Positions 5,104 through 7,852 of a stretch of 31,943 nt of DNA are shown here, piece by piece. Positions within the stretch are counted from its first letter, which is position 1. Each line of letters starts with the position of its first letter. The notes beneath the pieces were generated by a model. That model was not told the origin of the DNA. It did not search any database and saw only the letters and a list, made by a program, of their open reading frames with translations. A program made the translations under genes and the position numbers. The DNA is from a virus (Duplodnaviria > Caudoviricetes), in the IMG/VR virus record IMGVR_UViG_3300006029_000037, positions 1 to 31,943 of that record; one strand, written 5' to 3'.

Positions 5104-5613
5104 TTATATAGCTTTGTGTGTTCTATCGAAGTTATAATTTATTTTGTATATATCCGCAGGAGCATTTGATCTAACATAAACTGTTGCCCCGTTTGCTTCC
5201 CATGTGTCCAAAGTATAAGCACTCGGTAAACCGTAAACCACTCCTCGCTCAACACTCGCACCTTTAGGAAATACAAAAGTTTGCCTATATAGCTCTCCAA
5301 CTGCCCCACCGATATCCACCCATACTTCTAGCCATTGGTTCGCTGCTGAAGGAACCGCTTTAAAATAAAGCATCAAGTCTAACGCATCACCATTTCTTCC
5401 TGTGATTACTGAACCATCATAAAAGCTAGTAATATCAGAAGGTTTTTGGCTATCAATAATATTTCCCGCATTGTTAGGAAGAACTGTATCTGTGTCGGCA
5501 GCAATAGTGAAAGCTGTCCCTGCATCAATATGGACTGTATCTGTATAACTAGCCCACCCCGATGTGTTACTCCCGACATCGCCCCCTACCTTACTTCCTA
5601 TTAATATAGTCAT
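5104..5613 (-). CDS. hypothetical protein, probably virion-associated beta-rich protein
   Basis: 169 aa, AAGGAG RBS, G/T/S/D/aromatic-rich composition. Confidence 0.7.
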   Translation of the reverse strand: MTILIGSKVGGDVGSNTSGWASYTDTVHIDAGTAFTIAADTDTVLPNNAGNIIDSQKPSDITSFYDGSVITGRNGDALDLMLYFKAVPSAANQWLEVWVDIGGAVGELYRQTFVFPKGASVERGVVYGLPSAYTLDTWEANGATVYVRSNAPADIYKINYNFDRTHKAI

Positions 5614-5622
5614 AATATCTCC

Positions 5623-5907
5623 TTATACTTCTTGTACATTAATAGTAGTACCCAATACACTCCTAGCCTTACACCATATCTTTAAGCTACCTGTTAGTGC
5701 ATTAGCTGTAGCGTAAGGGTCGTCTGTATTAGTTACAGGTACGCCTATTGTGTCAGAAGCAGAAGGAGTACCTGTCTGCTCTAGTAATAATATCTCCCCA
5801 TTACCTTTGTTAGTAATAAGCATTGCCGTTCCTACAGTAATACCACTCTCTGTATTTACATCTACCCAAGTTTGTCCTATGACAATATCTGGTAATGTCT
5901 GTGCCAT
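5623..5907 (-). CDS. hypothetical protein, possibly virion-associated
   Basis: 94 aa, AAGGA RBS, predicted beta-rich (W.DV...GI..G...LITNKG...W.KA). Confidence 0.7.
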   Translation of the reverse strand: MAQTLPDIVIGQTWVDVNTESGITVGTAMLITNKGNGEILLLEQTGTPSASDTIGVPVTNTDDPYATANALTGSLKIWCKARSVLGTTINVQEV

Positions 5908-5943: not shown

Positions 5944-6053
5944 CCTCTACAAGCTCCATACAAGCTCTCTAAGCAACGTTAGATTTAGTAGTAGGGTAGG
6001 TAGGGGTGGGGGGTAAACGTTGCTTAGGATGGCTGTACGTGCGTTCTCAGGGG
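5944..6053 (+). repeat. dispersed palindromic element, copy 2
   Basis: Core at 5991-6006. Perfect 12-bp inverted repeat CTAAGCAACGTT (5969-5980) / AACGTTGCTTAG (6016-6027). The left arm is 11-bp periodic: CTACAAGCTCC|ATACAAGCTCT|CTAAGCAACGT. Confidence 0.85.
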
Positions 6054-6088: not shown

Positions 6089-6460
6089 CTACTTACCTAT
6101 CCTATCCATAAACTTATCTACTAAGTCTGTAAGCATTTTGGTGTTAGCTTGTATAGTGAGGTTAGCTGATTCTATCTTACGTTCAGAAGCTTGATTAATT
6201 CTATTAAGTTCTTCCCCCCTCATCTCTGACATATCAAGGGCTATCTTATGTCTATCTCTGTCTGTGTGACACTCCTCTACAGCAGCTTCCAGCTTCTCTA
6301 TCTTAGTATTAATAAAACTATTATGTTTATTACCTTGCCTGATAAGCGCCCACACCACTCCCGCCACTAGGATTATAAAAAGTATAGTGATAGCAGCTCC
6401 AGAGTTACCACCTTCACTTATCAATCTCACCTGATCTAGTATCTTTACTACGCTTTCCAC
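6089..6460 (-). CDS. membrane-anchored coiled-coil protein (holin/spanin-like architecture, function unknown)
   Basis: One TM (AAITILFIILVAGVVWALI) followed by a long heptad-rich helical region. GTG start with AAAGG RBS. Confidence 0.7.
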   Translation of the reverse strand: MESVVKILDQVRLISEGGNSGAAITILFIILVAGVVWALIRQGNKHNSFINTKIEKLEAAVEECHTDRDRHKIALDMSEMRGEELNRINQASERKIESANLTIQANTKMLTDLVDKFMDRIGK

Positions 6461-7020
6461 TGTGTGCCTTTCCTTTTATTGCTATTCTTAAAGAGAAGAT
6501 TAGGAGCAAGAAGTGTATCCCCAAGATACTGTAGTACCCCACATCCGACATACTTACTTCTCCCTTTTCTATCATATAAAATATACATCGCTACTCCATA
6601 ATAGATATTCACACTTATGTTATACAGCCAAGTCTCTGCATTGCTTGCAGCTACAGCTCCAGAGATAGAGAAACCTGATATATCAAATATATAGTTGCTT
6701 AGATGTGCAGACAAATGAGAACCCCAGTTGAGTATTCCTAGTCCACATATCAACATTTCAGCTATAAACAGATACATCACTGCACACTTCAATTTGCAAT
6801 GCCTTACTGTAGATAACACTATAACTCCTAGAAACACTACCATTACTTGTATAGTGTATGCCAACCAAGACTCTCCTGCATTTAGGAAGAACTTGAGAGG
6901 CTCTGGGGCTAATGCTGTGAGTAAGAAGATAGTTGCTATGCCACAGCCACGTTTAGTAGGATGTGTAATAAGACACATTCCACATAGTAGTATCAATAGT
7001 CCCCAGATAGTAATAGTCAT
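6448..7020 (-). CDS. polytopic integral membrane protein of unknown function
   Basis: 190 aa with about 5 hydrophobic segments and a basic C-tail. AGGA RBS lies inside the upstream mini-ORF. Confidence 0.75.
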   Translation of the reverse strand: MTITIWGLLILLCGMCLITHPTKRGCGIATIFLLTALAPEPLKFFLNAGESWLAYTIQVMVVFLGVIVLSTVRHCKLKCAVMYLFIAEMLICGLGILNWGSHLSAHLSNYIFDISGFSISGAVAASNAETWLYNISVNIYYGVAMYILYDRKGRSKYVGCGVLQYLGDTLLAPNLLFKNSNKRKGTQWKA

Positions 7021-7022
7021 AT

Positions 7023-7082
7023 CTACTTCCTAATCACAGGTTTGTCAGCAGTATCCCTAGTTGTACTCATTGGCTTCGACAT
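7023..7082 (-). CDS. 19-aa peptide MSKPMSTTRDTADKPVIRK (not in the ORF track)
   Basis: Strong AAGGAG RBS 6 nt before the ATG. The TAG ends 2 nt before the membrane-protein ATG. It is the first ORF after a predicted promoter. Confidence 0.6.
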   Translation of the reverse strand: MSKPMSTTRDTADKPVIRK

Positions 7083-7122
7083 TTGTATCTCCTTAGTTGA
7101 ATTAATTAATATACCAATACAT

Positions 7123-7151
7123 ATAGTAACATATTGTGTGGTAGATGTAAA
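7123..7151 (-). promoter_or_regulatory. putative sigma70 promoter with extended -10
   Basis: On the - strand: TTTACA (7151-7146), 17-nt spacer ending in TGT, then TACTAT (7128-7123). Confidence 0.6.
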
Positions 7152-7187
7152 GACTTATCGCTACCTACTCCTGCCTAATATACATAG

Positions 7188-7293
7188 CCCTAGAAGGCCT
7201 CTCGTTCCATTCTAAGGGCGTTTCTCTCTTTAGTAGTAGGGTAGGTAGGGGTATGTTAGAAGCTCTTAGGATGCTCGTATGGAGCTTCTAGAG
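7188..7293 (+). repeat. dispersed palindromic element, copy 3
   Basis: Core at 7236-7251. CTAAG 7212-7216 / CTTAG 7265-7269 and CTAGAAG 7190-7196 / CTTCTAG 7285-7291 share the same dyad axis. Confidence 0.85.
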
Positions 7294-7312
7294 AGGGGAG
7301 TGTTACCCTCCT

Positions 7313-7852
7313 CTACTTCTTCTTATAAGACTCTAATGCTTTAGCAAACTTATCACCAGTTCTAAAGCCTATGTATGCCCAAGCTGGAGATGAAAGGAAT
7401 CCTGCTAGGTATACATTAAATATATCAGAGTTAGGATTAAAGGCTGTAAACAACCAACACCCTAAGCAATAGGCTACTGTAGCATTCCAAGATTGTCTAG
7501 CCATGCGAGGACGTGTGTGGCGTACATACTCATCATCTGCATTATCACCTTGACGTATAGTATCTTGAGTCTGTTTATGCTCCTCTTGAGAGTCACCTAT
7601 TTTAGAGAGTATAAGATCATTCTCTAGCCGCTTCATTTCAAGTTTAAATGTATTATCAGCTTTCTTAATCTCAGCCATTAACTCAGGACTAGCACCATTG
7701 ATAGCAACCTCTGCACCTGACAATGTACTGATATCTTGGCCTACTACATCTGATATAGCTTTCATAGCTAATGTAGGTAGTGTAGCACCTCCTGACAACA
7801 CTGCTCCCGCAATATGAGGAGCATACTCTTTTAACTTACTTATCCAATTCAT
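7313..7852 (-). CDS. holin-like protein (3TM GTA-holin type C-terminus)
   Basis: N-terminal AP.IAGAVL..G amphipathic segment, coiled region, then VRHTRP + hydrophobic helices + YIGFRT.DK, a pattern typical of holin_3TM family proteins. Confidence 0.6.
   Translation of the reverse strand: MNWISKLKEYAPHIAGAVLSGGATLPTLAMKAISDVVGQDISTLSGAEVAINGASPELMAEIKKADNTFKLEMKRLENDLILSKIGDSQEEHKQTQDTIRQGDNADDEYVRHTRPRMARQSWNATVAYCLGCWLFTAFNPNSDIFNVYLAGFLSSPAWAYIGFRTGDKFAKALESYKKK

Follow-up and report, generated by a model that had tools for sequence, protein, structure and literature searches.

A 19-codon gene, a five-helix membrane protein gene, and an overprinted gene in a Felix O1/V22-like myovirus: a candidate unit for tuning lysis

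Does a very short open reading frame (ORF) ahead of a phage membrane protein gene encode a working peptide, or does it serve only the translation of its neighbor? The question is raised by a virus record of 31,943 bases, analyzed here at its full length and called the window, in which a first-pass annotation had described a cassette made of a promoter, a 19-codon ORF, a membrane protein gene, and a coiled-coil gene. Peptide signaling or processing of the AgrD/AgrB kind, superinfection exclusion, and a lysis-timing switch had been offered as explanations, next to a leader that couples translation. The promoter, the ribosome-binding site, the 19-codon ORF with its 2-nt gap, the 190-aa gene, the 13-nt overlap, and the 123-aa gene were all confirmed at their places. 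The gene inventory was incomplete, however, and had missed a 45-aa gene (6551-6414) that overprints the others.

Genomic Setting and Relatives

The minus strand of the window carries terminase, portal, capsid, sheath, and baseplate genes, as judged from the ORFs and from comparisons, and the genes are of the Felix O1/V22-like myovirus type. Its terminase is most like those of Alteromonas phage V22 and of the Barba phages of Rheinheimera (46%), which makes a Gram-negative gammaproteobacterium the probable host. No lysogeny genes were found in the window. An HNH/AP2-type homing endonuclease-like ORF (445-1116), recognized by eye, lies among the plus-strand genes.

The cassette follows the tail-fiber region and stands downstream of a gene for a 179-aa membrane protein (7313..7852, minus strand). 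The label "holin-like" earlier given to this gene (7852-7313) is conjectural, its family being PHROG 1544, whose function is unknown; relatives come after the endolysin in both of the cultured phages looked at, which makes the gene lysis-associated by neighborhood. Neither an endolysin nor a spanin was recognized among the window's ORFs, and this counts against a lysis-timing switch. Genes of the PHROG 1544 type after the tail fibers (window 7313-7852; L002 2511-3041; L021 1566-2084) are strongly divergent in sequence among otherwise syntenic relatives, a pattern that suggests exchange at this position. The place of two small, beta-rich genes (PHROG 4770 and 8270; window 5104-5907; L010 3331-4151; L021 3577-4378) shifts around the cassette: one lineage has the pair upstream, and others have it downstream. 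A 206-aa ORF after the cassette of L010 (5310-5930) resembles, by eye, 2-oxoglutarate/Fe dioxygenases.

DNA context was available for five lineages: the window's own (L011), L002, L010/L015, L013, and L021. Their membrane proteins are 34-39% identical to the 190-aa protein of the window. The lineages, the window's own included, are mutually related, so that the conservation counts given below are not independent. The peptide gene, the membrane gene, and the hidden 45-aa gene were kept in all five, the promoter in four, and the downstream coiled-coil gene in all except L021. Beyond these, tblastn searches of cultured phages with the 190-aa and 123-aa proteins and three distant family members gave nothing usable, the prokaryote genomes scanned held no relative, and the Atlas searches returned no usable family. 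Viral scans with two distant members of the membrane protein family gave no locus, which leaves most family members without DNA context.

A 19-Codon ORF under Protein-Level Constraint

The ORF (7023..7082, minus strand) encodes a basic peptide of 19 residues; the translation of 7082-7023 is MSKPMSTTRDTADKPVIRK. A Shine-Dalgarno sequence, AAGGAG (7089..7094, minus strand), lies 6 nt before its ATG, and the stop is placed 2 nt ahead of the 190-aa gene. In each of the five lineages the ORF has exactly 19 codons and ends 2-5 nt before the membrane gene. Five residues (M1, D13, K14, P15, and K19) are invariant across the five peptides, and the codons under them vary, with two in use for D, two for K, and three for P. 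Over codons 12-19 the pairwise differences comprise 22 synonymous and 24 replacement changes, where 21% of the possible point changes are synonymous; the other two reading frames over the region are closed. Judged by these codon comparisons, the peptide is under protein-level constraint. The constraint is local: along the whole peptide we counted 87 replacement versus 38 synonymous differences, and the N-terminal two thirds vary freely. The first-pass annotation had expected a mini-ORF upstream of homologous membrane genes, and one is indeed present, and constrained as a protein, in every lineage with DNA context.

The same ORF carries a second function, since its last codons form AGGAAG or AAGAAG and double as the Shine-Dalgarno sequence of the next gene. 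The conservation of these last codons is explained by that role, which is a point against the lysis switch. It is also the starting point of an alternative that we regard as rather unlikely, namely, that the ORF is a translational leader only, bringing ribosomes onto the membrane gene and setting its level, and that the membrane proteins are lysis accessories of the antiholin, releasin, or Lcc6 type. The spacing to the next ATG in all five lineages fits such a leader, as do the purine-rich final codons and the absence of a signal peptide, and accessory single-helix lysis factors are known, as the accessible parts of two sources describe (PMC9239132; 10.1101/2024.01.23.576932). A leader does not account, however, for the D-K-P motif, which lies 5-7 codons before the stop and is preserved through synonymous changes, or for the exactly fixed length; nor would a mere leader need the three tandem peptide units found in Edwardsiella phage PEi21 (see below).

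The residues found in processed signaling peptides were not seen. None of the five peptides contains Cys or an invariant Ser/Thr, and no fixed Ser/Thr stands five residues before D-K-P. There is likewise no export signal or signal peptide in the 19 residues, which are polar, though the conserved acidic loop of the neighboring protein is predicted to face outward; this, too, argues against a peptide-operated switch.

An Overprinted Gene for a Small Basic Membrane Protein

The hidden gene (6414..6551, minus strand) lies in the +1 frame; it overprints the final third of the membrane gene and extends into the beginning of the coiled-coil gene. Its 45-aa product has one membrane helix and a basic tail, and a GGGAG sequence stands 8 nt upstream of the start. 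The gene has an ATG in all five lineages and encodes 45-47 aa. Its effect can be read from the codon positions of the membrane gene: in the gene body, the variable columns at positions 1, 2, and 3 number 108, 84, and 120 of 139, with position 3 the highest, versus 13, 10, and 8 of 22 in the overlap, where position 1 is the highest. A shift of this size was reached by 18 of 10,000 resamplings of the gene body, a figure that is not a strict probability. As the peak of variability moves from position 3 to position 1, the tail of the 190-aa protein is shaped by the overprinted gene. Lineage L021 retains the hidden gene and has no coiled-coil gene downstream, from which we infer that the core of the unit consists of the peptide, the five-helix protein, and the small basic membrane protein.

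A Five-Helix Membrane Protein without a Family Assignment

The membrane gene (6448..7020, minus strand) encodes 190 aa, of which about residues 1-156 form the working part. The protein had no match in Pfam or PHROG, and neither it nor the 45-aa protein matched any named holin family in the profile scans. A profile search over 1.84 billion representatives gave 16 matches, of which 15 were kept; the remaining one (P0031), a repetitive retroelement-like protein, was removed by eye as false. Among 20 aligned family members, three touch PHROG 15451, a family of unknown function (best E 7e-5), and Pfam returned single weak DUF matches only. The earlier statement that the protein could be assigned to no known family thus stands.

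A confident structure model built from 27 sequences (pLDDT 79, pTM 0.72) was used in place of a first model from 13 sequences (pLDDT 51), which was set aside. It agrees with the earlier estimate of about five transmembrane segments, placing five membrane-length helices at residues 5-18, 23-45, 52-70, 76-101, and 131-149; the long loop contains a further, short helix (103-115). K/R residues are more frequent in loops 1 and 3 and in the tail, and loops 2 and 4 have a net acidic charge; by the positive-inside rule applied to the model, the protein is predicted to be N-out/C-in and to expose an acidic, conserved outer loop at 98-127. The most conserved stretch is part of this loop (104-118; 0.61 vs. 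0.41-0.51 in the helices). Elsewhere, Cys13 is found in all 16 family rows covering its position, His20 in 14 of 18, with replacements in four distant members, and Glu88 in 15 of 19.

Comparison with solved structures (48,161 chains) gave a best Z of 7.5, with none at 8 or more, and the matches were generic helical bundles. No predicted viral structure was matched by Foldseek at E ≤ 0.001. The top six Foldseek matches have E values of 0.002-0.06, probabilities of 0.99-1.0, TM scores by query of 0.42-0.60, and lengths of 142-166 aa; the three named proteins among them are uncharacterized phage proteins, including those of Edwardsiella phage PEi21 and Caulobacter phage phiCbK. Matches in BFVD include K4JPZ4 of phiCbK as well as A0A2I7QJM8, H9C0H3, and A0A5B9N926.

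The Coiled-Coil Protein and Lone Receiver Domains

The 190-aa gene overlaps by 13 nt the next gene (6089..6460, minus strand; 6460-6089), which encodes a 123-aa single-helix/coiled-coil protein and is the variable member of the unit. The flanking charges of the N-terminal helix in eight sequences predict an N-out/C-in topology, a releasin-type feature. The likeness to DUF2730 is weak: the 123-aa protein scores 14.8 bits against PF10805, below the cut-off of 24.9, and neither of the two L002 paralogues matches that family.

Upstream of the peptide gene, three of the five lineages (L002, L010, and L021) have two more genes, one for another helix/coiled-coil protein and one for a lone receiver domain; the L002 receiver matches PF00072 at E 5e-6, under the cut-off. 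The window has neither a receiver nor a kinase, and the L013 sequence is too short to judge. We also observed that the helix/coiled-coil gene overlaps the lone receiver gene (L002 3177-3867; L010 2634-3330; L021 2233-2899; L019 8870-9699). An RGEELNxxN motif might be read as that of a signaling helix. The lone receivers have apparently intact phosphorylation-site residues and no adjoining kinase, and they occur in or beside the lysis genes of several myoviruses. In V22, the coiled-coil/receiver pair sits between amidase and spanin-like genes; the V22 paper, in its accessible part, names the receiver only as a signaling auxiliary gene (PMC7289586).

Similar Layouts in Cultured Phages

The gene context of one of the fold matches, that of PEi21 (AP013057), was inspected; the match was assigned to ORF-50 by its unique length only, as the sole CDS of 143 codons among 71. 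The preceding ORF-49 ends 2 nt before ORF-50 and encodes a basic peptide of 41 aa in which DAGGRGKTR occurs three times. An unannotated 51-aa ORF in the +1 frame (L022 28115-28270), whose product has one helix and a tail rich in Arg, overprints the end of ORF-50 and overlaps ORF-51, the gene of a membrane protein whose tail is helical and charged. All annotated members of the set are called "hypothetical," and the set is divergent from, and next to, an annotated SAR endolysin and spanins. PEi21 is thus like the window in having a peptide gene 2 nt before a multihelix gene, a +1-frame ORF for a single-helix protein with a basic tail, an overlap with the next membrane gene, and a matching fold. 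It differs in its peptide, which is longer, repeated, and free of D-K-P, and in the membrane protein, which is 10% identical. The three tandem nine-residue basic units of ORF-49 (L022 27644-27769) resemble a multicopy ligand precursor.

A looser parallel was seen in Barba19A (NC_048190), where gp133-gp135 comprise a helix/coiled-coil gene (annotated PF10805), a gene for a 24-aa basic peptide with DKP, and a 139-aa multihelix gene, and the set falls between endolysin and spanin-like genes. Unlike in the window, the gene order is different and gp135 has no detectable sequence likeness to the family (probability 0.9%), and we therefore treat Barba19A as no more than an analogue. Comparing profiles with Barba gp135 and gp133 and V22 gp029 gave nothing significant.

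Among the explanations first offered for the cassette, the lysis-timing switch gains most from these layouts, with PEi21 and Barba19A having their sets beside endolysin and spanin genes.

Promoter, Flanking Repeats, and Expression

The sigma70-like promoter (7123..7151, minus strand), TTTACA-17-TACTAT with an extended -10 TG, has 9 of 12 consensus letters. Taken as a lone match it is at chance level, since a scan found 12 such sites versus 15.5 ± 4.3 in shuffled sequences. What speaks for it is that spacing and place are conserved in three other lineages: TTGACT-17-TG-n-TAnnnT, read by eye, occurs at the equivalent place in L002, L010/L015, and L013 and is absent in L021. A weak terminator-like hairpin (7186..7199, minus strand) lies upstream of the promoter. 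The unit is less fixed than the first-pass description has it, as L021 lacks both an own promoter and the downstream coiled-coil gene.

Identical copies of a 24-nt repeat stand upstream (7229..7252, no strand) and downstream (5984..6007, no strand) of the cassette. The repeat has two matches in the window versus none in 100 shuffles, and similar repeats were found in four of six other loci scanned. The copies are the cores of related intergenic elements with inverted arms (window 5945-6030 and 7200-7295), and similar elements occur in related loci. Such elements may be recombination points for the swapping of accessory units. Exchangeable accessory (moron) units have this anatomy too, with an own promoter and repeats on both sides, and this is a further point against the lysis switch.

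Three metatranscriptome runs contain about 70% of the cassette's words. The contigs cover pieces of the cassette together with the whole late region, and one (6741-7406) crosses the promoter and the hairpin, so the RNA does not show a separate transcript or start.

These features could also belong to an accessory unit, expressed early, that serves in superinfection exclusion or membrane defense and in which the peptide would be an intracellular, antitoxin-like inhibitor of a membrane effector. The host-type promoter in four of five lineages, the flanking repeats, the location behind the tail genes, where the region is variable, and the conserved loop predicted to face outward would all fit. 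We think it improbable, as the PEi21 and Barba19A layouts stand beside or inside lysis genes, L021 has no promoter of its own, and the family scans, which covered Pfam and PHROG, found no exclusion family.

Comparison with Known Systems

In AgrB/AgrD and in arbitrium, as in the cassette, a small peptide gene adjoins the gene of its partner. The AgrD propeptide has a ring-forming Cys (or fixed Ser) and an amphipathic leader, and arbitrium pairs the AimP propeptide, which carries a signal peptide, with an adjoining cytoplasmic TPR receptor, AimR. None of the 20 family members matched AgrB (PF04647) at E ≤ 0.1, and there was no match to RRNPP. Membership in AgrB/AgrD fails on the missing Cys and the missing AgrB match; arbitrium was ruled out on the 19 polar residues without signal peptide and on neighbors that are membrane proteins. 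The probably Gram-negative host and the lack of lysogeny genes in the window set the cassette further apart from both. A related proposal makes the membrane protein a peptidase (Cys/His) or exporter by which the peptide would be matured into a secreted signal, with a host kinase and the phage receiver as its readers. It could cite Cys13, His20, and the lone receiver upstream in three of five lineages, and we consider it highly unlikely given the unmatched AgrB profile, the replacement of His20 in distant members, a peptide without Cys or the fixed Ser/Thr before D-K-P, and a window lineage without receiver or kinase.

Single-helix lysis proteins are nearer in form. Releasins lie within five genes downstream of the endolysin, in transposable phages. 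Releasin membership does not apply here: PF10805 stays below the cut-off, no endolysin was recognized in the window, and the window is Felix O1/V22-like, not a transposable phage. The releasin Mu gp25 (DUF2730, PF10805) and LambdaSo Lcc6 are single-helix N-out/C-in proteins, the topology predicted for the 123-aa and 45-aa proteins too; the cytoplasmic part of Mu gp25 is mainly acidic, whereas that of the cassette proteins is neutral or basic. In the accessible parts of the sources, both Mu gp25 (PMC9239132) and LambdaSo Lcc6 (10.1101/2024.01.23.576932) are accessory factors needed for lysis, and no peptide or five-helix partner is described for either system. N4 gp62/gp63 and T4 RI/T are membrane regulators that delay lysis upon an outside cue (PMC12642591, accessible part), and N4 gp62 is a further precedent for an accessory single-helix factor; there the cue is superinfection, not a peptide, and no sequence match to the cassette was seen.

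A crude pattern scan for a lipobox, run without a positive control on the window and four loci, found none in or near the cassette, and Rz-like PHROG matches appeared at E 0.002-0.04 only. A literature search, which did not reach subscription papers and supplements, returned no paper on a set of peptide, membrane, and overprinted genes. The parts come from no named family, and their layout is unlike any described system that we found.

Discussion

We tentatively propose that the peptide, the five-helix protein, and the overprinted single-helix basic protein form a membrane switch tuning lysis timing, a reading that we consider plausible if short of probable. The role in lysis is assigned because the neighbors in PEi21, Barba19A, and V22 are lysis genes. 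The overlaps of the genes point to coupled translation, which would give matched amounts of the interlocked products. The basic peptide, as the predicted ligand, would bind the five-helix protein, and the bound form would restrain or release the small basic membrane partner of 45 aa, which may act at the holin or endolysin-release step. The helix/coiled-coil protein and, in relatives, the lone receiver domain would be optional inputs or adaptors.

A more speculative variant, which we regard as decidedly unlikely, places the peptide between cells, as a signal of virulent phages in Gram-negative bacteria. The basic peptide would accumulate during infection and be spilled by lysis; infected cells nearby would sense it through the acidic outer loop of their five-helix receptor and shift their lysis time, and no secretion would be needed. 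On this reading, the fold matches suggest that a single superfamily of receptors, each with peptides specific to its phage, spans many phage groups.

Burst size is set by when lysis occurs, and this timing is understood for only a few phages. Should the peptide be a mere leader, the finding reduces to a variant of lysis accessory genes. The 19-codon ORF and the overprinted gene are, in either case, of kinds that annotation routinely misses. If the proposed membrane switch is real, a peptide-switched membrane regulator would be a new layer of control for Gram-negative lysis, present in cultured phages, and if the peptide also acts between cells, it would amount to phage communication without a secretion system.
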